In this document: piece by piece, positions 7,376-54,950 of the stretch
Position numbering within the stretch: position 1 is the first letter of the stretch
Layout of the letters: every line of letters begins with the position of its first letter
NCBI RefSeq assembly: GCF_031178445.1
Contig: NZ_JAPSIY010000008.1
Location: forward strand, 65,429 to 129,428
Origin: Microbacterium sp.
GTDB lineage: Bacteria > Actinomycetota > Actinomycetes > Actinomycetales > Microbacteriaceae
DNA length: 64,000 nt
Direction of reading: 5' to 3'
Program-made: the position numbers and the translations under genes
Notes under the pieces: generated by a model
What the model was told of the DNA's origin: nothing
Database searches by the model: none
What the model saw: the letters and a program-made list of their open reading frames with translations, nothing else

Positions 7376-8321
7376 CGGCGTCCCGGCCCCGCGGCTGTCC
7401 GTCGTCATCCCGGTACGCGATGATGCGATCCTGCTCGAGAGATGCCTGGAGGCGCTCAGCCGTCAGGCTCTTCCGCCCCACGAGGTGATCGTCGTCGACA
7501 ACGCCTCCTCCGACGAGTCGGCGGCGATCGCCAGGGCGGCGGGAGCCCGCGTGGTCGGCTGCGCGATGCCTGGGATCCCGGCAGCGAGTGCGGCGGGGTA
7601 CGACGCCGCCACGGGAGACCTGATCCTGCGGCTGGATGCCGACTGCATCCCCGCGCCGTCCTGGACCCGCGACGTCGACAGCGCCTTCCGCCGCGATCCC
7701 GAACTCGCCGCGGTCACGGGTGCGGCCACGTTCGTGGACGGGCCTCGAGCGCTGCGATCGGGTGGCGCACGACTCTATCTTGGTGCGTACCGGCTTCTCA
7801 CAGCGACGGCGCTCGGTCATAGGGCGTTGTTCGGGTCGAACATGGCGATGCGAGCGGACACGTGGAACCGTGCCAGGGATGGCGTGCACCGATGCGACCC
7901 CGAGATCCATGACGATCTCGACCTGTCGTTCCATGTCGGCGAACTAGGCCGTGTCGGTTGGCTGCGCTCGGAGCCGATGGGGATCTCGAGCCGTCCGATG
8001 TGGAGCGCAGCCGCGTTCGCACGACGGGTGCGCCGGGGGATGCGGACGGTCGTCCTGCACTGGCCGGAGGATTTTCCGCCCCGCCGATGGAGACGGCTGG
8101 CCCGACGGCGCAGACGTGATCGCGGGACGGCGCCCGCAACGCGGCCATCCGGCAATGGCCGAGGGCCCGGATCCATTCGGATCCGGGCCCTCGGCCTTGC
8201 TGTGCGCGAGGGGGGACTTGAACCCCCACGCCCTATTCGGGCACTAGCACCTCAAGCTAGCGCGTCTACCTATTCCGCCACCCGCGCAGGTGATGAACAG
8301 TCGTTGCCGACCGAAGAATGA
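7359..8321 (+). CDS. Glycosyltransferase family 2 (C-terminus probably read-through)
   Basis: SVVIPVRDD, IVVDNASSD, RLDADC, GSNMAMR, HDDLDLS; ORF continues antisense through tRNA-Leu; start uncertain. Confidence 0.8.
   Translation: MTSRPDGVPAPRLSVVIPVRDDAILLERCLEALSRQALPPHEVIVVDNASSDESAAIARAAGARVVGCAMPGIPAASAAGYDAATGDLILRLDADCIPAPSWTRDVDSAFRRDPELAAVTGAATFVDGPRALRSGGARLYLGAYRLLTATALGHRALFGSNMAMRADTWNRARDGVHRCDPEIHDDLDLSFHVGELGRVGWLRSEPMGISSRPMWSAAAFARRVRRGMRTVVLHWPEDFPPRRWRRLARRRRRDRGTAPATRPSGNGRGPGSIRIRALGLAVREGGLEPPRPIRALAPQASASTYSATRAGDEQSLPTEE
8157..8196. terminator. Perfect 18-bp hairpin, probable bidirectional terminator
   Basis: GGCCGAGGGCCCGGATCC-ATTC-GGATCCGGGCCCTCGGCC between convergent GT2 and tRNA. 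Confidence 0.8.
8203..8287 (-). tRNA. tRNA-Leu(GAG), CCA not encoded
   Basis: Acceptor GCGCGGG/CTCGCGC, anticodon stem CTAGC/GCTAG with loop TTGAGGT, long variable arm, T-loop TTCAAGT. Confidence 0.96.
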
Positions 8322-25620: not shown

Positions 25621-27975
25621 TTGCCTGCACTGCATCCGGCCGACGGCCACGACGCCATCCGCGTCGAGGGCGCGCGCGAGAACAATCTGAAGAACGTGAG
25701 CGTGGAACTGCCGAAACGGCGTCTCACCGTCTTCACCGGGGTGTCGGGCTCCGGTAAGAGCTCCCTCGTCTTCGACACCATCGCTGCGGAGTCCCGCCGC
25801 ATGATCGACGAGACGTACAGCGCCTTCGTGCAGGGGTTCATGCCCTCCGTACCACGACCCGACGTCGACGTGCTCGAGGGCCTCACCACCGCCATCATCG
25901 TCGACCAGGAACGCCTGGGCGCGAATCCCCGTTCGACCGTCGGCACCGTCACGGACGCGAATGCGATGCTGCGCATCCTCTTCTCCAAGCTCGGCAAGCC
26001 CTACATCGGCGGCCCGACCGCGTTCTCGTTCAACATCCCGACGCAGAAGGCCAGCGGCGTGATGACGGGCCCCGGTGGCGAGAAGAAGATCGTCAAGGAC
26101 GCGATCTACCTGGGCGGGATGTGTCCGCGGTGCGAGGGCAGGGGAGCGGTGTCGGACATCGACCTCACGCAGGTCGTCGACGAGACGAAGTCGCTCGACG
26201 AGGGCGCGATCATGGTTCCCGGTTACACCGCCGACGGCTGGATGGTGAAGGGGTTCTCGCAGTCCGGCTTCTATCCGTCCGACAAGCCCATCGAGCAGTT
26301 CACCGAGAAGCAGCGGCACCTGTTCCTGTACGGCGAGGTGACGAAGGTCAAGATCTCGGGGATCAACATGACCTACGAAGGCCTGATCCCCAAGATCACG
26401 AAGGCGATGCTGTCGAAGGACCTCGACGCCTTGCAACCCCACATCCGGCGTTTCGTAGAGCGCGTTGCGACGTTCGCGACCTGCCCGGAATGTGACGGGA
26501 CGCGGCTGACCGAGGGGGCGCGATCGTCGAAGATCGCGGGCATCAGCATCGCCGATGCATGCCGGATGCAGGTCACAGATCTGGCCGAGTGGGTGCGCGG
26601 GCTCGATCTCGCAGAAGCGGGACCACTGCTGAAGGCGCTCAGCGCCAACCTCGACGCGTTCGTCACCCTCGGCCTGGGGTACCTGAGCCTCGACAGGCCG
26701 TCAGGCACGTTGAGTGGGGGAGAAGCGCAGCGCATCAAGCTGCTGCGTCACCTCGGCTCATCGCTCACCGACGTCACCTACGTCTTCGACGAGCCGACCA
26801 TCGGTCTGCATCCGCACGACATCCAGCGGATGAACGGACTGCTGCGCGAACTGCGAGACAAGGGCAACACGGTGCTCGTCGTCGAGCACAAACCTGAGGC
26901 GATCGCGATCGCCGACCACGTCGTCGACCTGGGCCCCGGCGCGGGGAGCAACGGCGGCGAGATCTGTTTCGAAGGCACCGTCGAAGGGCTGCGAGCGAGC
27001 GGGTCTCTCACCGGCCGGCACCTCGATGACCGGGCGGCGCTCAAACCCGCGGTGCGCAAGGCGACCGGCGTGATCGAGGTGCGCGGGGCAACCGCGAACA
27101 ACCTGCAGGACGTGGACATCGACATCCCCACGGGCGTGCTCACCGTCGTGACCGGCGTGGCGGGATCCGGCAAGAGCTCGCTGATCCACGGATCGGTGTC
27201 GCCGCGAGAGGGCGTCATCGCGATCGACCAGTCCGCGATCCGGGGATCGCGACGCAGCAACCCCGCCACCTACACAGGGCTGCTCGAGCCGATCCGCAAG
27301 GCGTTCGCCAAGGCGAACGGCGTCAAGCCGGCGCTGTTCAGTGCCAACTCCGAGGGCGCGTGTCCCACATGCAAGGGGGCCGGTGTCATCATCACCGAGC
27401 TCGGGTTCATGGACACGATCGAGACGCCGTGCGAAGACTGCGGTGGCAAGCGGTTCCAGGCCGCAGTACTGGAGTACAAGCTGGGTGGGCTCGACATCAC
27501 CGAGGTGCTGGACCTGCCGGTCGCGAAGGCGCGGGAGTTCTTCTCCTCGGGCGAAGCGAAGATCCCCGCAGCGGCTGCGATCCTCGGCCGGCTCGAAGAT
27601 GTGGGGCTCGGCTACCTCTCGCTCGGTCAGCCCCTGTCGACTCTGTCGGGCGGTGAGCGGCAGCGCGTCAAGCTCGCCATCCAGATGGGGGAGAAGGGCG
27701 ACGTCTACGTGCTCGACGAGCCGACCACCGGTCTGCACCTCGCAGACGTGCGTCAGATCCTCGGCCTGCTCGACCGGCTGGTCGACGACGGCAAGACCGT
27801 GATCGTCATCGAGCATCACCAGGCGGTGATGGCCCACGCGGACTGGATCATCGACATCGGCCCGGGTGCGGGCCATGACGGAGGCCGGGTCGTGTTCGAG
27901 GGCACACCCGCCGATCTCGTGGCTGCGGCATCGACCTTGACGGGTCAGCATCTGGCCGAGTACGTGGCCGGCTGA
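25621..27975 (+). CDS. UvrA-like ABC ATPase (class II, UvrA2/DrrC-like)
   Basis: GARENNLK, two Walker A motifs (GVSGSGKSS, GVAGSGKSS), LSGGE signatures, CxxC zinc fingers; 784 aa, shorter than canonical UvrA. Confidence 0.92.
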   Translation: MPALHPADGHDAIRVEGARENNLKNVSVELPKRRLTVFTGVSGSGKSSLVFDTIAAESRRMIDETYSAFVQGFMPSVPRPDVDVLEGLTTAIIVDQERLGANPRSTVGTVTDANAMLRILFSKLGKPYIGGPTAFSFNIPTQKASGVMTGPGGEKKIVKDAIYLGGMCPRCEGRGAVSDIDLTQVVDETKSLDEGAIMVPGYTADGWMVKGFSQSGFYPSDKPIEQFTEKQRHLFLYGEVTKVKISGINMTYEGLIPKITKAMLSKDLDALQPHIRRFVERVATFATCPECDGTRLTEGARSSKIAGISIADACRMQVTDLAEWVRGLDLAEAGPLLKALSANLDAFVTLGLGYLSLDRPSGTLSGGEAQRIKLLRHLGSSLTDVTYVFDEPTIGLHPHDIQRMNGLLRELRDKGNTVLVVEHKPEAIAIADHVVDLGPGAGSNGGEICFEGTVEGLRASGSLTGRHLDDRAALKPAVRKATGVIEVRGATANNLQDVDIDIPTGVLTVVTGVAGSGKSSLIHGSVSPREGVIAIDQSAIRGSRRSNPATYTGLLEPIRKAFAKANGVKPALFSANSEGACPTCKGAGVIITELGFMDTIETPCEDCGGKRFQAAVLEYKLGGLDITEVLDLPVAKAREFFSSGEAKIPAAAAILGRLEDVGLGYLSLGQPLSTLSGGERQRVKLAIQMGEKGDVYVLDEPTTGLHLADVRQILGLLDRLVDDGKTVIVIEHHQAVMAHADWIIDIGPGAGHDGGRVVFEGTPADLVAAASTLTGQHLAEYVAG

Positions 27976-27991: not shown

Positions 27992-28783
27992 ATGGCCACC
28001 GATCAGCGCGAGATCGACGAGCGGATCCAGACCTACTACGGTGAAGTCTTCGACGAGGAAGCCAGGCTGACCAGCCGCTCCGCCCAGGGGCCGCTGGAGT
28101 TCGCTCGCACGCAAGAGATCGTCCGGAGGCATGTGCCCGAGGGAAGCATCCTCGATATCGGCGGAGGAGCCGGCGTGCATGCCCGAGCGCTGGTGGACGG
28201 CGGATACGACGTCACCCTGATCGACCCCGTCTCACGGCATGTCGCGCAGGCGCGGGCCGCCGGCGTGCGAGCATCCGTTGCCGATGCACGTGACCTGCCG
28301 TTCGAGGATGCAGTCTTCGACGCCGCGCTCATGCTCGGGCCGCTCTACCATCTGGCGTCGAGCGCTGACCGGCAGGCAGCGCTCCGCGAGGCGCACCGCG
28401 TCGTGCATCCCGGCGGACACGTGTTCGCCGCAGGCCTTTCAAGATATATCGCGTTCGGCAAGGTCTCGCTCGCACGCGCGATGCCTGAGGAACTGCCGGG
28501 GGAGTGGGCCGCTCTCATCACCGGTGGAGCGCCCGTCTCGGGGATGCGGTTTCCGGCGGGGCATTACCACACAGCCGAAGAACTTCACGCTGAGCTGGAG
28601 GAAGCCGGGTTCTCCGAAGTCTCCGTCGTGGGCTTGGAGGGTCCCGCAGGCCTGTACCTGGAGACTGTCGCCGAGGCTGATGCGGAGTTGTCGGACGCGG
28701 CGCTCGAGCTCGCGCGGGCGGCCGAGGCCGTGCCCGGTATCCGCGACTTCAGCGCGCACCTGATCGGGATCGGCCGGGCCTGA
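27992..28783 (+). CDS. Class I SAM-dependent methyltransferase
   Basis: ILDIGGGAG, DARDLPF, GPLYHL; RBS GAGGAG. Confidence 0.88.
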   Translation: MATDQREIDERIQTYYGEVFDEEARLTSRSAQGPLEFARTQEIVRRHVPEGSILDIGGGAGVHARALVDGGYDVTLIDPVSRHVAQARAAGVRASVADARDLPFEDAVFDAALMLGPLYHLASSADRQAALREAHRVVHPGGHVFAAGLSRYIAFGKVSLARAMPEELPGEWAALITGGAPVSGMRFPAGHYHTAEELHAELEEAGFSEVSVVGLEGPAGLYLETVAEADAELSDAALELARAAEAVPGIRDFSAHLIGIGRA

Positions 28784-28858
28784 CCGCGTAGACGCCGTCC
28801 GTCTGCGAGCCCCGCCGGGGGTCTACTCTGTGAGTGTCTCTGACGGAAGGGGTCGGCC

Positions 28859-29041
28859 ATGGGCGTCGAAAGCGGGCAGCTGGCTGAGCATCACGTGCCC
28901 GGCCCCGGCGAGAGCAGTGTCCCAGAGCTCGAAGAGGACGAGACCGTGGCGCCGCGGCCCGAGGAGGCCATCGCCGACGTGCTGCGGGCGAAACCCGACG
29001 TCGCCGACCACAGTCGCGGTACAGGTGGGAACCTGCGGTGA
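28859..29041 (+). CDS. Small acidic hypothetical protein (60 aa)
   Basis: -10-like TACTCT at 28824, RBS-like GGAAGGGG, stop overlaps next GTG start. Confidence 0.55.
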   Translation: MGVESGQLAEHHVPGPGESSVPELEEDETVAPRPEEAIADVLRAKPDVADHSRGTGGNLR

Positions 29042-29276
29042 GAACGCTTGCGCGGAGTCTGCTGTCGGCAGGATTCGCGTTCGTTCTCGCATTCGCCATG
29101 CTCATCCTCGAGAACGGAATCATCGCTGACGTGTCCGGCGGCGTCGGTACGGTCACGTCCGTACAGGCGGGCGTGGGAATCGCGGGAGCCGGGCTGGTTG
29201 TTCGGGGTTCGGTCTGCTGGTCATCGCTGCGCGTCGCCTCACCGCGCGCACACCGGCGCCCAGGGCTGCGACCTAG
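29038..29276 (+). pseudogene. Probable frameshifted small two-TM membrane protein
   Basis: Hydrophobic N-terminus; a 1-nt shift near 29203-29208 continues as FGLLVIAARRLTART to TAG at 29274. Confidence 0.4.
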
Positions 29277-29310
29277 GTGCGGGATCGCGAGCCTGCAGAC
29301 CGCATCAATA

Positions 29311-29338
29311 TAATCCGATAATGCACATTATGTCAGCT
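29311..29338 (+). other. dif-like XerC/XerD recombination site
   Basis: TAATCCGATAA-TGCACA-TTATGTCAGCT: 11-6-11 layout, ATAA..TTAT inner repeat, TTATGT XerD arm; 17/28 identical to E. coli dif; gene orientation switches here. Confidence 0.85.
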
Positions 29339-29387
29339 TGAGGACCTCCACGAACCAGTTGAGTCGCGGAGTCGGGTCGGTCCTCTC

Positions 29388-29753
29388 TCACGCGAGCGCA
29401 GGGACCACCCATGCGGCAGCAGCGAACCCTGCAACAGACACGAGCAGCAGAAGAACGATCCCTGCGCCGACGACCCACGACCGCCGCCTGGAGAGCACCA
29501 CCGTGGCAAGGATCGCTGCTAGACACGCAACTGCTATGACGACAGTCCAAACGGTGGCCGCGACTTGCCGATCGTGGGCGAAGCAGTTTCGCGGGCCTGG
29601 CATCGTCAGAGCACACACCTCTGGCCCGACCGGGACGGCAACCCACCAGATCAAGCCGACCGCGATGAGCGCGAGCAGTGTCATGATCAGAATCCCGACC
29701 ACCATGGCCGCAGTCGGCCGGACTGAGGAGCGTCTTCCCTCGAGGGCCGTCAT
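29388..29753 (-). CDS. Hypothetical 3-TM membrane protein
   Basis: Three hydrophobic segments, Cys pair in loop; TATGAT 6 nt before ATG. Confidence 0.65.
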   Translation of the reverse strand: MTALEGRRSSVRPTAAMVVGILIMTLLALIAVGLIWWVAVPVGPEVCALTMPGPRNCFAHDRQVAATVWTVVIAVACLAAILATVVLSRRRSWVVGAGIVLLLLVSVAGFAAAAWVVPALA

Positions 29754-29833
29754 TTCCTCATCATAAGAGGGCCGCCGTCTCCCCCGCGTTCGCCGGTCCA
29801 CCGGGACAGCACTCGCGAGAATCCCCTCCTCGC

Positions 29834-30334
29834 GTGGGACAATCTTTTGTGCTTCCGACCACGCATGAACCAGCGGGCTACTCCTGCCCGTTCTGCAGGC
29901 TTCAGCAGGGACTGTTCGACGAGCGGAACGCGGCATCCGACATCATCGCTGTCACGGAACGTGCTTATGCGCGCATCGCCCCTAAGTGGTGGCCGGGCAA
30001 TCACGGCGCGGTTCTCGTGATCCCGCGCGTGCACGTGGAGAACATCTATGGAATCTCGGCGGCGGACGGGTTCGCCGTGTGGGACCTCGTGCAGCGCGTC
30101 GCCACGAGCATGCGTTCCGCCTACGGATGCGACGGTACTTCGATCCGGCAGCACAACGAGCCGGGTGGCGATCAGGACGTCTGGCATCTCCATGTGCACG
30201 TCTTCCCCCGCCACGAGAACGATCGTCTCTACCTTCGGCACGATGAGTCCGGGTGGTTCTCTCCTGCCGATCGTGAGCCGTACGCACTGAAGCTGCGCCG
30301 TGCACTACAGCTGCCGTACACGTTCGACGACTGA
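29834..30334 (+). CDS. HIT family protein
   Basis: CPFC, HNEPGGDQDVWHLHVHVFPR histidine triad; start uncertain. Confidence 0.9.
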   Translation: MGQSFVLPTTHEPAGYSCPFCRLQQGLFDERNAASDIIAVTERAYARIAPKWWPGNHGAVLVIPRVHVENIYGISAADGFAVWDLVQRVATSMRSAYGCDGTSIRQHNEPGGDQDVWHLHVHVFPRHENDRLYLRHDESGWFSPADREPYALKLRRALQLPYTFDD

Positions 30335-30407
30335 CCCGCGCGCGAGCGACCATCACCACTCCCCTGCGCCGGCGCTCGAACCGCGGTCACCGCCGCCCAT
30401 GGTCTGC

Positions 30408-30920
30408 TTGATGAGACGTCGGTCATTCCTCGGACGTGACAACGCCGCTCCCCCGTCGCCTAGGCTCTCGAATGTGAAGGCCGCCATACAGATCACGATC
30501 GCGGAGAGCCTGGCAGCCGGCGACCTCGCCCGGATCGAGGCGCTCCTCGCGCAGTTGTCATTGACGGCCACCTTCGAGCCGTCTCGCGTGCAGATGATGC
30601 TCACGACACCGGGAGTGGACCTCTTCGTCGCCCGCGACGCGGAGCGCATCGTCGGGATGGCGACGCTCGTGACGTTTCCACTCGTCACCGGCTGGCGCGG
30701 GATCGTCGAGGATGTGGTCGTGGACCATCTGGCCCGTGGGCGAGGCGTAGCGCGATCGCTGCTCGAAGCGATCATCGACGAGTCCGACCGGCGCCGTCTT
30801 CGCACCCTCGACCTCACGTCTCGTCCGTCACGCGAGTCAGCGCTTCGTCTCTACGAATCGGTCGGGTTCCGGCCTCGCGACACGAATGTCCTGCGATACG
30901 CCCCGCCGTCGGACGGCTGA
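30408..30920 (+). CDS. GNAT family N-acetyltransferase
   Basis: VEDVVVDHLARGRGVA, LYESVGF; start may be GTG 30474. Confidence 0.85.
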   Translation: MMRRRSFLGRDNAAPPSPRLSNVKAAIQITIAESLAAGDLARIEALLAQLSLTATFEPSRVQMMLTTPGVDLFVARDAERIVGMATLVTFPLVTGWRGIVEDVVVDHLARGRGVARSLLEAIIDESDRRRLRTLDLTSRPSRESALRLYESVGFRPRDTNVLRYAPPSDG

Positions 30921-30972
30921 ACAGCAGCCATACGGAAATGCCAACACGCAACCTTGTGCAGGGCCGGCGGGA

Positions 30973-32562
30973 TCACGCCGGCCTGCTCGGCGATGCAAGG
31001 CCGTAGACGTCCAGCCCGCCCGGCACGACAGCGACGGTCGCCGACACCGTACGATCTTCGGACGCACTCGGCGTGACCTCGCCGTCGTGCGCAAAGCCGA
31101 CAGGCTCCGACACACCAGCCTGCGCCTCGATGCGCAGCGACGTCGTGGTGAACGACTCGATCGTTGCCAAGCGCGCACGCCCCGGAACGCGGTCGAGCAT
31201 GGCCGAGGCCCGTACACCGAAGGCAAGCGCGACCAGCCCGCGAAGCCGCGGCATGCGACCTCGAGCATGCAGCACCCGCACGTCCAGCACCCCATCGTCG
31301 AGGCGTCGACGCTGCAGTGGCACCATGGAGGTCGACGAATTCGCCCCTGTCGCGACCGCCACCGACCAGACTCTGGCGGGGCGCCCGTCGACGCGGACGT
31401 CGATCGTCACAGCGCGCGCCAGCACCTTCGCGGCTGCGACAAGAGCTGCGACCGGCTTGCCGAGACGGTTCTCCATCGACTCCCGCTCCGCCACGAAGTC
31501 GGGATAGATTCCGACGGACGCCGCGTTCAGCACCGTGAGCGGCTCGTCCCCTTCGATCGTCAGCTCGGCGATGTCCACGCGCCGTCCTGCACCAGAGCGC
31601 ACCGCGTCGACGGCGTCGTCGATCGTCGGCGCGCCCGCGGTGCGGGCGAAATGATTGAACGTCCCGCCGGGGAAGATCAGCAGCGGAAGGCCGGCGCGTC
31701 GAGCGGCATCTGCGACGGCCGCGACCGAGCCGTCGCCACCCCACACGCCGAGCACTAGAGGCGGCCTCGCCGACGCGAGCGCGTCGCGAACCAGTTCGGC
31801 GATGTCATCGCCTTCCTCGAGGACGTGAGTCGCGGCACCGGGCAGCGCCTCGGAAAGGAAGTTCACAGGCTCAGGTCGCAGTGGATCGATACCTGATGCG
31901 GTGTTCACGAGGATGAGCGCTCCGGTACCGTCGGGCAGCGCAGGCAGCTCGACCGCGGGCGCCGAACGCGCAGGCTCCCGGATGCTGCGTGCAGGCACCA
32001 GCAATCTCCCGGTTACCGCGACGGCCGACCCGAGCGCCGCTCCGCCGACGACATCGGAGAGCCAGTGAGCACCCGTGTGCAGACGCGAGTAGGCCACGGC
32101 GGCACCGAGCGGTGCGAGGATCACGCCGCTGCGGCGCGATTCCAGGGCCACCCCGGTGACGAACGCCGCAGCCGAAGCGGAGTGCCCCGAAGGGAAGGAG
32201 GCCGACGTCGGCGTCTTCTTGAGCCGTCGTGGCACCGGCACGTCCTTGAGCACCGGACGGTCACCGCCGAAGATCTGCTTTCCCACGAGATTGGCCAGTG
32301 CGCTGCCGACGACAAGCGATGCGACACCGCGGACCGCTCCCCGCCGCGCCGCTCCCCCGAGCGCGTAGAGAACCACGGCGATGCCGATCCACAGTCGGCT
32401 GCGATCTGCCAGGTGCGAGAGCCGCGCAAGGGCTCGGTCCAGACTCGGCAGATGCCGGTGACCGTTGATGGCTCTGGAGGCGAGCGCGTCCGCCCGGCGC
32501 ATCCACCGCGGCAGGATGCGCACGCGACGCAAGGCGATGAACGGATGTGCGGTCAGCCCCAT
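30973..32562 (-). CDS. Bifunctional PAP2 phosphatase / diacylglycerol kinase family protein
   Basis: RP..SFPSGHS..SRLHTGAHWLSDV (PAP2); VNTASG, GGDGSV, GGTFNHFA, DGE (DAGK). Confidence 0.9.
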   Translation of the reverse strand: MGLTAHPFIALRRVRILPRWMRRADALASRAINGHRHLPSLDRALARLSHLADRSRLWIGIAVVLYALGGAARRGAVRGVASLVVGSALANLVGKQIFGGDRPVLKDVPVPRRLKKTPTSASFPSGHSASAAAFVTGVALESRRSGVILAPLGAAVAYSRLHTGAHWLSDVVGGAALGSAVAVTGRLLVPARSIREPARSAPAVELPALPDGTGALILVNTASGIDPLRPEPVNFLSEALPGAATHVLEEGDDIAELVRDALASARPPLVLGVWGGDGSVAAVADAARRAGLPLLIFPGGTFNHFARTAGAPTIDDAVDAVRSGAGRRVDIAELTIEGDEPLTVLNAASVGIYPDFVAERESMENRLGKPVAALVAAAKVLARAVTIDVRVDGRPARVWSVAVATGANSSTSMVPLQRRRLDDGVLDVRVLHARGRMPRLRGLVALAFGVRASAMLDRVPGRARLATIESFTTTSLRIEAQAGVSEPVGFAHDGEVTPSASEDRTVSATVAVVPGGLDVYGLASPSRPA

Positions 32563-32663
32563 CTTCTGAGCGTAGACCTCTGGACCGGCGGCGGGGAGGG
32601 GCAGACCCGGCTCCGGAGTGCGCGACGACCCCCGCCGCTGTCTGGCTGGTGCAGGATGGAGCC

Positions 32664-33221
32664 GTGCCCAGCTTTCCCGATGCGACGCTCACGACCTCCA
32701 CGGGTCTGACGCTTTCATCCCTCATGGCCTCAGATGCATCTGCACTCATGAGCGCGTTCTCGGATGCCGAGCTGCGCCGCTGGCTGCCGTTGCCATCGCC
32801 GTACACGATGGATCTCGCGGAGTCCTGGTGCACGAGCACCTCCAGGGAACTGCTCGAGTCGGGCCGGGGTTTCGTTCTCGGGGTCCGCGATCGTGACGCG
32901 CTGGTCGCGAGCATCGACGCGAAGCGGGTCGACTGGCGCGCGCGCACGCTCGAGCTGAGCTACTGGACTGCCGCCTCCCATCGCGGGCACGGCGTCATGT
33001 CGACCGCGGTCCGGCGCGTGGCCGACTGGGTCATCGGCGAGCTGGGCTTCGAGCGCATAGAACTGCGCATCGCGACCGAGAACGTCGGCTCCCTGCGAAC
33101 GGCCGCCCGCGCCGGTTTCGTGCGGGAGGGAGTCGCCCGCAACGCGGGATTCACGGATGCCGGGCGCGTGGATCTCGCCGTCTTCTCTCTGATCCGTTCA
33201 GATCGGCCGAGCAGCGGCTGA
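32664..33221 (+). CDS. RimJ/RimL-type GNAT acetyltransferase
   Basis: ELSYW..HRGHGVM, ENVGSLRTAARAGFVREG; GTG start inferred. Confidence 0.85.
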   Translation: MPSFPDATLTTSTGLTLSSLMASDASALMSAFSDAELRRWLPLPSPYTMDLAESWCTSTSRELLESGRGFVLGVRDRDALVASIDAKRVDWRARTLELSYWTAASHRGHGVMSTAVRRVADWVIGELGFERIELRIATENVGSLRTAARAGFVREGVARNAGFTDAGRVDLAVFSLIRSDRPSSG

Positions 33222-33228
33222 CCCGCGG

Positions 33229-34311
33229 TCAGATCCGACCCCGCATCGGGGTGCGCTCGACGGGATCGCCCTCCTCCGGCATCGTCATCTCGGCACGCAC
33301 GCCCAGCAGGCGCACCTCGCGCGTACGGTCGAGCATCTGCCCCAGCGCAAGCGCAGCATCCACGAACTCACCGCGATCCAGGGTCGGTTGCGGCAGCTTC
33401 CTTCCGATGGTCTTCGTCTCGAACGGTGCGTACCGCACCTTGAGATGCACGCGGGTCACCGGTCGTCCCTCGGCCGCGCAATCGGCGTACGCATGCTCGG
33501 CGAGTTCCCGAATCGCGACGTCGACTTCGCCCGGTGCGGCCAGGTTCTGCTGAAAGGTGATCTCTCGGCTGTGGCTGCGCGCGACCCACGGTGTGTCGTC
33601 GACGACCGCGGGGCCGTTCCCCGAACCGAGGCCGTGGTACCAGGCGCCCAACTTGGGCCCGAACTCCCGAAGCATGGCTTCATGGTCGGCGTCCGCCAGC
33701 TCGCGCACTGTGCGGATCCCGTGTGACGCGAGACGCTTCTCGATCTTCGCGCCGACGCCCCACAGCTCCCGCGTGGAGCGCTCGCCCATCACGTCGAACC
33801 AGTTCTGCTCCGTCAGACGGAAGACTCCCCCGGGCTTGCCGAACTCTGTGGCGATCTTCGCCCGCACCTTGTTGTCGCCGATGCCGACCGAGCACCTCAG
33901 GCCGGTCGCCTCGAGCACCGCCCGCTGCGCCTCACGGGCGACAGCCTCGGGGTCGGCGGTCCGGACGCCGAGAAAGCATTCGTCCCACCCGATGACCTCG
34001 AGCACGACATCGGGAAGCGCGCGAAGGGTCGCCATCACGTGATCCGACGCCGCCTCGTACGCCTCGTGATCCACCGGCAGGAAGACGGCGTCCTCGGGTG
34101 CCTTTCGCGCAGCGATCTTCAGCGGCATGCCCGACCCGATCCCATACTGTCGCGCCTCGTACGAGGCCGTCGAGACCACGGCGCGCTCGGTCGGATCCCC
34201 GCGCCCGCCGACGATGACCGGGCGTCCTGCCAGCTCGGGCCGACGCAGCACCTCGACCGCCGCGATGAACTGATCCATGTCGACGTGCAGCACCCACGAA
34301 GCGAACCCCAT
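33229..34311 (-). CDS. dinB: DNA polymerase IV (Y family)
   Basis: LHVDMDQFIAAVE, STASYEAR, DE acidic pair, SVGIGDNKVRAKIA, KPGG, LWGVG. Confidence 0.92.
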   Translation of the reverse strand: MGFASWVLHVDMDQFIAAVEVLRRPELAGRPVIVGGRGDPTERAVVSTASYEARQYGIGSGMPLKIAARKAPEDAVFLPVDHEAYEAASDHVMATLRALPDVVLEVIGWDECFLGVRTADPEAVAREAQRAVLEATGLRCSVGIGDNKVRAKIATEFGKPGGVFRLTEQNWFDVMGERSTRELWGVGAKIEKRLASHGIRTVRELADADHEAMLREFGPKLGAWYHGLGSGNGPAVVDDTPWVARSHSREITFQQNLAAPGEVDVAIRELAEHAYADCAAEGRPVTRVHLKVRYAPFETKTIGRKLPQPTLDRGEFVDAALALGQMLDRTREVRLLGVRAEMTMPEEGDPVERTPMRGRI

Positions 34312-34406
34312 GCCTCGAGTGTGCCGTGCGCAGGCCCTGTTCGTCACTCCTGTCGACTCGCTTCGCACGATCGCGCCCGCACTCCTCGCGGGACTAGCGT
34401 GGGAAC

Positions 34407-35729
34407 GTGACCTCCTCCCCGCCGCTTCGCTCGACACCGGCCTGGCGCGCGTGGCTGATCTGGTCGGTCGCCGTCGCCGCGTACATGCTGGCGATCGCGA
34501 ACCGGGCGTCCCTCAGCGCCGTCGGCGTCGACGCCGCTGAGCGTTTCCAGGCAGACGCCTCCACTCTCTCACTCTTCGCGGTGGTGCAGCTCGCCGTGTA
34601 CGGCGGGATGCAGCTGCCGATCGGCGTGCTGCTCGACCGCCACGGCTCACGCCCGATCATGGCGATCGGTATGGTCCTGATGGCGCTCGGTCAGCTGGTC
34701 ATGGCCCTCTCCCCCAGCATCGGCATCGCCTTGATCGCGCGAGTGCTCCTGGGCGCCGGCGACGCGGCCGTCTTCCCCGCCGCGCTGCGTCTGGTCGCGA
34801 CTTGGTTCCCCGCACAGCGCGGTCCACTGATGATGCAGCTGACAGGCCAGCTGGGTCAGCTCGGCCAGCTCGTGGCGCTGATCCCCGTCGCCGCCCTGCT
34901 GCATGCGACGACGTGGACCATCACCTTCGGCAGCATCGCCGGCCTGGGGGTTCTCTTCGCGATCCTCGTCTGGGCGCTGATCCGCAACCGCCCGCCCGAG
35001 CGCGCCGCCGATGTCACCGTGAACACCGAGACCGGAGTCGTCAAGGTGGTGACCTCGGCCATCGACACCGGCGTCGGCATCGGGGCCGCATGGGCGCATC
35101 CTGGCACACGGCTCGCATTCTGGTCGCACTTCACGACGCCGTTCGCCGGCACGGCGTTCGTGCTGCTGTGGGGCATGCCGTTCCTCACAGCGGGGGAAGG
35201 CCTGCCGACGGCCGCAGCTGCCGGCGTGCTGTCACTGTTCGTCGTCGCCGGCATGGTGTTCGGACCCCTGCTCGGCGAACTGTCCCGCCGCATTCCCACG
35301 CGACGATCCCTCGGCCTCGTGCTGCCCACGGTCGCCGTTCAGCTTCTCGCCTGGATCGTCGTCATCGTCTGGCCCGGGCCGGCGCCGACCTGGCTGCTTG
35401 TGCTGCTGGTGATCGCGCTCGCCGCCGGCGGCCCTGCCTCGATGATCGCGTTCGACCATGCGCGCACGCACAACCCCGCCCATCGGCTGAGCACGGCTAC
35501 CGGCCTGACGAACGCTGGCGGCTTCCTCGCCGCACTCATCGCGATCTTCCTGATCGGCCTCACTCTCGATCTGCAGGGTGCCGGCACGCCGGAGACGTAC
35601 TCACTCGACGCGTTCCGTCTCGCGTTTCTCACCCAGGTTCCGCTGTGGCTGCTGGGCGCCGTGTTCATCGTGATCGAGCGCAAGCGCACTCGGATCCGGA
35701 TGGGGCTCGATCCGGAGAGGAAGCGATGA
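34407..35729 (+). CDS. MFS transporter
   Basis: About 12 TM segments, GVLLDRHGSR motif A. Confidence 0.9.
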   Translation: MTSSPPLRSTPAWRAWLIWSVAVAAYMLAIANRASLSAVGVDAAERFQADASTLSLFAVVQLAVYGGMQLPIGVLLDRHGSRPIMAIGMVLMALGQLVMALSPSIGIALIARVLLGAGDAAVFPAALRLVATWFPAQRGPLMMQLTGQLGQLGQLVALIPVAALLHATTWTITFGSIAGLGVLFAILVWALIRNRPPERAADVTVNTETGVVKVVTSAIDTGVGIGAAWAHPGTRLAFWSHFTTPFAGTAFVLLWGMPFLTAGEGLPTAAAAGVLSLFVVAGMVFGPLLGELSRRIPTRRSLGLVLPTVAVQLLAWIVVIVWPGPAPTWLLVLLVIALAAGGPASMIAFDHARTHNPAHRLSTATGLTNAGGFLAALIAIFLIGLTLDLQGAGTPETYSLDAFRLAFLTQVPLWLLGAVFIVIERKRTRIRMGLDPERKR

Positions 35730-45727: not shown

Positions 45728-45810
45728 GCCGGCGTGGCGGAATGGCAGACGCGGAGCACTCAAAATGCTTTGTCCGAGAGGACGTGTGGGTTCGAGTCCC
45801 ACCGCCGGCA
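45728..45810 (+). tRNA. tRNA-Leu(CAA), CCA not encoded
   Basis: Acceptor GCCGGCG/CGCCGGC, anticodon loop CTCAAAA, variable arm, T-loop TTCGAGT. Confidence 0.96.
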
Positions 45811-45869
45811 CTCGAATCGAACTGGCCCGAACGACCTGAGGTCCCAGATCCCGGCCTCGCCACGGGGGC

Positions 45870-53300: not shown

Positions 53301-54950
53301 GTTGCGCTCCGGGCCGAGGCCGAGCCGCAGGCTGGTGACGACCTCCTCGCGGATCGCGTCGAGCGGCGGGTTCGTCACCTGCGCGAACTGCTGCACGAAG
53401 TAGTCGAACAGCAGTCTCGGTCGCTCGCTGAGCACGGCGATCGGGGTGTCGCTGCCCATGGCGCCGAGCGGCTCGGCGCCGTTCTGCCCCATCGGGGTGA
53501 GCAGAATGCGCACCTCTTCCTCGGTGTACCCGAAGGTGCGCTGACGGCGCGTGATCGACGCGGCCGGATGCACGATGTGCTCGCGCTCGGGCAGGTCGGC
53601 CAGGCGCACCGAACCGGCATCCAGCCACTCCCGCCACGGGTGCATGGTGGCGAGCTCGCGCTTGATCTCGTCGTCCTCCACGATGCGCCCCTGAGCGGTG
53701 TCGACGAGGAACATCCGACCGGGCTGCAGGCGCCCGCGGCGCTTGATGCGTTCCGGCTCGAACTCCAGAACTCCGGTCTCACTGCCGATGACGACCAGAC
53801 CGTCCGTGGTCTCGGTCCAGCGGCCGGGTCGCAGCCCGTTGCGATCGAGGGTCGCCCCCACCTGCGTGCCGTCGGTGAAGATCAGGGCAGCGGGTCCGTC
53901 CCACGGCTCCATCTGGTTCGAGTGGTACTCGTAGAAGGCGCGCAGGTCGGGGTCGATGTCGGCCTGCTTCTCCCAGGCCTCCGGCACCATCATCATCACC
54001 GCGTGCGGCAGGCTGCGCCCCGTGAGCGTCAGCAGTTCGAGCACCTCGTCGAACGACGCGGAATCGCTCGCTCCCGGGGTGCAGATGGGCAGCAGCGGAC
54101 GGATGTCGCCGAGCAGCTCGGACGCGAGCTGCGATTGACGCGCGCGCATCCAGTTGCGGTTGCCGCCGACGGTGTTGATCTCGCCGTTGTGCGCGAGCAT
54201 CCGCAACGGCTGCGCGAGCGGCCACGACGGGAACGTGTTCGTCGAGTACCGGGAGTGCACCACCGCGAGCTCGGAGGCGAATCGTTCGTCCTGCAGGTCG
54301 GGGTAGAACGGCTCCAACTGCAGGGTGGTCACCATGCCCTTGTAGCCGAGCGTGCGAGCCGAGAGCGAGACGAAGTACGCGCCGAGCTCGTGGCCCGCCC
54401 GCTTGCGCAGGCGGTACGCGATGCGGTCGAGGACCAGCGGCGACGAGGCGTCGCGCGCCCCGCTGCCCGGACGCGTGATGAAGAGCTGCTCGAAGGCCGG
54501 GCGCGCCTCGTCGGCGAGCTTGCCCAGGTTCTCGTTGGCGGTGGGGACGACCCGCCAGCCGAGGACGACGAGGCCCTCTTCGGCGGCGATGCGCTCGATG
54601 CCGGCCTTCTGCTCGCGGCGAGCGCTCGACTCCCGGGGGAGGAACGCGAGGCCTGCGGCGTACTCGCCGAGGGGCGGGAGGTCGAAGTCCGTCACCGCCC
54701 GGAGGAATGCGTCCGGCATCTGCGTGAGGATGCCTGCGCCGTCGCCGGTGCCGGCGTCAGAGCCGATCGCACCGCGGTGTTCCAGGTTGCGCAGCGCTTC
54801 GAGCGCCAGCGCGATGATGTCGTGGCCGGGTTCCCCGCGGAGCGTTGCGACCATGGCCAGGCCGCAGGCGTCCTTCTCGTGGGCGGGGTTGTACATCCCC
54901 TGCTTCGGGGGGTAGGCGCCGGAGGCGCCGTAGGGAGGCTGGAAGTACAC
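50376..54950 (-). CDS. gltB: Glutamate synthase large subunit
   Basis: [50 protein letters not shown]. Confidence 0.98.

Follow-up and report, generated by a model that had tools for sequence, protein, structure and literature searches.

The window, by which we mean the whole 64-kb stretch of DNA analysed here, is about 68% G+C, and the genes identified in it by Pfam and NCBIfam scans flank a short A+T rich site at 29311-29338. To the left of the site are pafC, tatC, a gene for a HelY-like helicase, lnt, rbpA and genes for a glycerophosphodiesterase, SPFH/NfeD proteins and a UvrA paralogue. To the right are genes for DNA polymerase IV and MFS transporters, polA, the gene for an ANTAR response regulator, pyruvate kinase (pyk), glutamate synthase (gltBD), lgt and trpA. 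The flanking genes are ordinary chromosomal housekeeping genes. No integrase or tyrosine recombinase was found in the 40 ORFs of the window that were scanned, a set that leaves out some ORFs near the window ends. The xerC, xerD and ftsK genes are normally sited elsewhere than dif. RNA families and tRNAs are absent from the neighborhood of the site, the sole RNA-family matches of the window being two distant tRNA-Leu genes. The identical locus is found again in metagenome assemblies from soil and rhizosphere. The features that bear on the interpretation are these:

4580-28504, + strand: left-arm polar octamers (T/C)GGGGGAG and G(A/T/C)GGGGGA, 14 of 14 on the + strand and pointing to the dif site
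8202-8287 (- strand) and 45728-45811 (+ strand): tRNA-Leu genes (anticodons GAG and CAA), from the RNA-family scan
25621-27975, + strand: gene of 784 aa for a UvrA paralogue without the UvrB-binding region
27992-29313, + strand: species-specific accessory stretch between the UvrA paralogue and the dif site (a methyltransferase and two small doubtful ORFs)
29311-29338, + strand: complete 28-bp predicted dif site, TAATCCGATAATGCACATTATGTCAGCT
29311-29321, + strand: putative XerC-binding arm, TAATCCGATAA, from alignment with E. coli and mycobacterial dif
29322-29327, + strand: 6-bp central (strand-exchange) region, TGCACA
29328-29338, + strand: putative XerD-binding arm, TTATGTCAGCT, from the published list and the alignment of relatives
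29388-34437, no strand assigned: species-specific accessory stretch to the right of the dif site (105-aa ORF, HIT, GNAT, PAP2-diacylglycerol kinase fusion, GNAT, DNA polymerase IV)
29779-63310, - strand: right-arm octamers of the same two families, 20 of 22 on the - strand and pointing to the dif site (exceptions at 35190 and 54634)

The 28-mer reads as TAATCCGATAA-TGCACA-TTATGTCAGCT. The 11-6-11 structure and the inner ATAA/TTAT inverted repeat that the preliminary description had assigned to it are indeed present at 29311-29338, the full inverted repeat being ATAATG / CATTAT. With A+T at 21 of its 28 positions, the site is also, as had been said of it, the most A+T rich stretch in the window, whether the stretch considered is 28, 40 or 60 bases long. 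Allowing up to three mismatches, the 28-mer occurs once in the 64 kb and was matched in none of 100 shuffles. The generic dif skeleton, ATAA-N6-TTATGTNANNT, with up to two mismatches likewise occurs once (0.02 occurrences expected). The site had been placed in non-coding DNA between convergent ORFs, and this holds except for its first three bases: they are the TAA stop codon of a doubtful 91-aa ORF on the + strand (29038-29313), which is a gene call in just one of five independent contigs. The next ORF to the right of the 28-mer (105 aa, - strand) ends at 29388. Standard annotation was expected to miss such a site, and in the annotated RefSeq Microbacterium record NZ_CP072877.1 no feature lies under the equivalent site.

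As a yardstick we used the survey of dif sites by Kono, Arakawa and Tomita (2011; PMC3025954), which holds 66 actinobacterial predictions, and built a weight matrix from the 29 of them that are in register. The window site scores 42.6 bits on this matrix, within the range of the training sites themselves (34.7-53.2 bits). No other site in the 64 kb scanned reaches 5 bits on it. The actinobacterial dif consensus, CCGATAA...ACATTATGTCA, is matched by the window site; the outer bases of both arms are unlike those of every published example.

The closest published sites are the predicted dif of Frankia alni, CACGCCGATAATGCACATTATGTCAAGT, and that of Clavibacter michiganensis NCPPB 382, TGCGCCGATAATGCACATTATGTCATGT, Clavibacter being, like Microbacterium, a genus of the Microbacteriaceae (PMC3025954). 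Each is identical to the window site at 23 of 28 positions, 21 of them contiguous. This 21-base core, CCGATAATGCACATTATGTCA, includes the central TGCACA, and the 11-6-11 layout is shared as well. All three sites are intergenic and single-copy in the sequence examined. The differences from the F. alni and Clavibacter sites are confined to the outer XerC-arm bases (TAAT) and to bases 26-27 (GC) of the XerD arm, positions that vary among the published sites too.

Mycobacterial dif, taken from the M. bovis rows of the survey (TAAGCCGATAAGCGACATTATGTCAAGT; PMC3025954), agrees with the window site at 22 of 28 positions, with 10 of 11 in the XerC arm and 9 of 11 in the XerD arm, and has the same layout; the two belong to one family of sites. 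Its central region departs at three of six positions (TGCACA here, GCGACA in mycobacteria). In mycobacteria, cassettes flanked by dif are excised by the cell's own XerCD (10.1101/758037), and the dif sites of M. tuberculosis and M. smegmatis have been used for Xer-cise marker excision. By the logic of that work, since the central regions differ at half of their positions, the Microbacterium and mycobacterial sites would not be expected to recombine with each other.

The preliminary description had compared the site with E. coli dif, and its count of 17 identities in 28 was reproduced position by position against the sequence quoted in PMC3025954. The two share the architecture, the inner ATAA/TTAT repeat, the TTATGT arm and G-rich polar octamers that converge on the site; what differs is the overall sequence, with just those 17 identities, and the polar motifs themselves (KOPS, GGGNAGGG, in E. 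coli). Because the window is actinobacterial, E. coli is the wrong yardstick. Judged by sequence, the comparison with it understates the match, and actinobacterial dif is the better yardstick.

A further precedent is Corynebacterium aurimucosum. Its dif, TTGTCCGATAATGTACATTATGTCAGAT, is 28 bp long and near the actinobacterial consensus, and it was located by plots of architecture-imparting sequences, AIMS (PMC2830990). Two octamer families, the same as those listed above, change strand at the C. aurimucosum dif (PMC2830990). That work used a complete genome, in which dif was placed 180 degrees from oriC, whereas the present analysis is of 64 kb alone.

Conservation was examined in two ways. 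One was to gather loci through the UvrA-like neighbor gene and to scan them with the dif matrix (L006-L085; 80 loci, about 1.6 Mb). The scan returned 21 sites of at least 20 bits, every one of them downstream of the UvrA-like gene and on the same strand, and no dif-like site of at least 20 bits anywhere else in those 1.6 Mb. A UvrA paralogue followed by a same-strand dif-like site is thus found in 21 of the 80 actinobacterial loci, which come from several orders (L006-L010, L013, L015, L016, L022, L024, L025, L033, L035, L041, L045, L047, L056, L060, L066, L070 and L082). The UvrA paralogue is thus a conserved left neighbor of dif in many Actinobacteria. In five of these loci (L007, L047, L056, L066 and L070), from several genera, the site lies only 39-115 bp past the stop codon of the UvrA paralogue. 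The paralogue of the window scores under the NCBIfam cut-off for UvrA and shares 89-91% identity with proteins from several Microbacterium genomes. Its adjacency to dif looks like a very old terminus-proximal gene order; that it is functional, beyond inherited gene order, is a possibility. The rbpA-GDPD-SPFH-NfeD block to the left of the UvrA paralogue is widely conserved too.

The other was an alignment in which the window and five Microbacterium-type loci were compared over 188 bp spanning the site. Only CCGATAATGCACATTATGTC is invariant in it, together with the following AG in five of the six sequences, and the flanks are unalignable. The conserved island is 20-22 bp long, and the central TGCACA is invariant in the five relatives. 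Within the putative XerC arm, CCGATAA is invariant and the outer four bases are variable, both among the relatives and in the published list; in the putative XerD arm, TTATGTCA is conserved and the outer three bases vary among the relatives. Gene order is kept on both sides of the site in L006, L007, L009 and NZ_CP072877.1. The dif site of the last record, TTTGCCGATAATGCACATTATGTCAGTT, is at 402967 and is the only one in 150 kb of the record. The expectation that the site would be conserved across relatives is thus borne out: the core is invariant and occupies the same gene-order position in the five Microbacterium-type loci.

The genes that immediately adjoin the site are more changeable. Small accessory genes next to dif differ, on both sides, between Microbacterium relatives, where such stretches were found at 12343-14450 in L006, 12349-15600 in L008, 12352-15380 in L009 and 12349-16100 in L010. 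Over the window and the relatives they include genes for methyltransferases, GNATs, HIT, APH, RibD_C and SnoaL proteins, and further ones for a CAAX protease, a PAP2-diacylglycerol kinase fusion and DinB. The stretch at 27992-29313 is missing from L007, in which dif lies 54 bp past the stop codon of the UvrA paralogue. On the other side, the MFS gene at 34407-35729 of the window has its counterpart about 520-550 bp from dif in L006 and L007 (549 bp in L007).

Polar octamers provide evidence of a different kind. The AIMS of actinobacteria, (T/C)GGGGGAG and G(A/T/C)GGGGGA, were the means by which dif was located in Corynebacterium genomes (PMC2830990). Of the 36 copies in the window, 34 fit a single change of strand, and the best switch point, 28497-29779, brackets the site. 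When k-mers were ranked blindly by how far their strand changes with the side of the site, GGGGGAG emerged de novo as the most polar 7-mer, with 24 copies toward dif and one away. All of these 25 copies up to 28504 are on the + strand, and from 29779 on 13 of 14 are on the - strand. When the five relatives are added to the window, the ratio of toward to away becomes 96:1. The polarity persists inside genes of the opposite strand, and therefore is not a by-product of gene orientation. It also persists in the accessory inserts, whose octamers are correctly oriented.

The same change of strand is seen wherever the site is. In the 21 loci that contain a dif-like site, octamers on the two strands number 135:1 to the left and 0:105 to the right, so that 240 of 241 fit a switch at the site. 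Loci that have no dif-like site have polar octamers and no switch. In 100 kb of NZ_CP072877.1, 51 of 52 octamers fit a switch at its dif. The E. coli KOPS, in contrast, showed no polarity in the window. We found no literature that pairs GGGGGAG with KOPS or FtsK; the motif has been published instead as an actinobacterial AIMS.

GC skew and gene orientation change in the same place. Cumulative GC skew, which the preliminary description had named as a check, has a local maximum at 29220, 91 bp from the site; neither oriC nor dnaA lies within the 64 kb. The skew is weak in the window, at +0.014 on the left and -0.008 on the right, and beyond about 52 kb it is positive once more. When the window and 18 loci are compared, the left side has the higher skew in 17 of these 19 sequences. 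Coding bases to the left of dif amount to 17.2 kb on the + strand and 6.3 kb on the - strand, and to the right to 3.2 kb and 24.3 kb, respectively. The octamers, the cumulative skew and the gene orientation each change over at the site or no more than about 100-800 bp from it. Because all three converge there, we infer that the window is in the terminus region. The stronger statement made earlier, that the window probably contains the replication terminus, goes beyond the evidence in that it draws a terminus from local polarity alone.

One further feature of the skew is local. Between about 52000 and 58000, the + strand GC skew is clearly positive over gltB, lgt and trpA. The genes there and nearly all of the polar octamers are still on the - strand, the exception being the octamer at 54634 (+ strand), inside gltB.

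How else might the locus be read? An A+T rich palindrome could have arisen by chance, or another signal (a promoter, a terminator or a regulator-binding site) could merely resemble dif. The inner arms do form a short palindrome, and a sigma-70-like match (CTGACA-18-TATATT, 10 of 12 positions; 29307-29336, - strand) overlaps the site. However, the matrix score and the run of 21 identities shared with independently predicted sites go far beyond what chance would give, and the conservation has the exact limits of the dif core. Downstream of the promoter-like match there is no gene on the - strand, and a terminator scan returned no hit. Such a reading would also leave the coincidence with the polarity switches unexplained, and we regard its probability as negligible. 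The promoter-like match is probably a by-product of the A+T rich dif arms. The site might alternatively be a real dif, but one displaced from the true meeting point of the forks, with replication normally ending outside the window. Several actinobacterial dif predictions are tens of degrees off the computed GC-skew shift point, those of Micrococcus luteus, Thermobifida fusca and Clavibacter among them (PMC3025954), and the skew of the window is weak and non-monotonic. Against displacement, the skew maximum, the octamer switch and the convergence of gene orientation coincide with dif, and the large distances between dif and shift point in weak-skew genomes may reflect unreliable estimates of the shift point. 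We consider displacement unlikely.

A third reading would take the site away from the chromosome, as the Xer site of a plasmid, a megaplasmid or an integrated Xer-exploiting element. Actinobacterial plasmids with dif-like sites do exist (e.g., Prescottella equi pVAPB1593, CTTACCGATAATCCACATTATGTCATCC), the closest annotated match sits in a record labelled 'plasmid' (NZ_CP072877.1), and species-specific accessory genes lie on both sides of the site. Yet the window has the core chromosomal genes tatC, lnt, rbpA, polA, pyk, gltBD, lgt and trpA. The 'plasmid' NZ_CP072877.1 has the same core genes along with the his and aro operons, rpoZ, gmk and efp, and looks like a mislabelled chromosome. Octamer polarity is uniform over about 29 kb to the left and about 35 kb to the right, and switches at the site alone. 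Also missing from the window are flanking repeats and another dif-like site or half-site, and the ORFs scanned include no integrase or element genes. Together these make a plasmid or element origin of the site highly improbable. The preliminary description had proposed, in addition, that the chromosomal site is a potential entry point for mobile elements that exploit Xer. Nothing in the window supports this: it has neither another dif-like site nor, among the ORFs scanned, genes of an element. The matrix scan and two arm searches of the window for a second site or half-site gave nothing beyond chance, a search for repeats bounding the accessory genes gave chance-level matches only, and a phage collection gave no meaningful match. 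A module of the IMEX or pdif type, which has a dif-like site at either end, one of them often degenerate, was rejected, as there are neither two dif-like sites bounding an element nor bounding repeats in the window. It is very unlikely that the accessory genes at dif were the cargo of Xer-mediated integration of circular DNA whose second site was later lost. If they were delivered in this way, dif would be a hotspot of gene capture in Actinobacteria.

We return to the chromosomal reading. The consensus match, the conservation in relatives and the strand switches are observed directly, and with them in hand we hold it to be very probable that 29311-29338 is the chromosomal XerC/XerD dif site of a Microbacterium-like soil actinobacterium, as the preliminary description had proposed. 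Protein binding, FtsK dependence and recombination at the site would be expected to proceed as follows. If the site works like those of E. coli and mycobacteria, its left arm, TAATCCGATAA, would be bound by XerC and its right arm, TTATGTCAGCT, by XerD. Once the chromosome has replicated, septal FtsK would read the polar octamers, (T/C)GGGGGAG and G(A/T/C)GGGGGA, which point to the site from both chromosome arms, and would pump DNA until the sister copies of dif come together. FtsK would then activate strand exchange across TGCACA, by which a chromosome dimer would be resolved into two monomers.

A dif site is an ordinary and expected feature of a chromosome, and this type of site, its polar octamers and the method by which it is found are all in the literature already. 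Its location is nonetheless of use. It would fix the terminus and the two replication arms, and thereby help in orienting contigs, checking assemblies and interpreting strand bias. In Microbacterium, the 28-mer could also be put to use for self-excising markers (Xer-cise).

Some observations were made on other records in passing. NZ_CP072877.1 (L086-L089), a 465-kb record of Microbacterium sp. NIBRBAC000506063, bears the label of a circular plasmid. Even so, the syntenic terminus region is on it along with essential chromosomal genes (polA, pyk, the trp, his and aro operons, rpoZ, gmk, efp, nusB and priA), and it is probably a mislabelled or misassembled chromosome. Its first 50 kb have the look of a conjugative element. 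In P. equi pVAPB1593 (NC_011150.1; L090, 1497-1524), the dif-like sequence CTTACCGATAATCCACATTATGTCATCC has vapB on one side and a hypothetical gene on the other, in DNA that bears no annotation. The search also reported a match at the corresponding place in a second P. equi plasmid (H9, NZ_KX443397.1). The dif-like 28-mer of the conjugative plasmid pVAPB1593 may be a plasmid Xer resolution site. Lastly, a dif-like match was found in Nonomuraea gerenzanensis (NZ_LT559118.1, 6487918-6487945), at about 55% of the length of an 11.85-Mb record that is in the plasmid collection and is evidently a chromosome.
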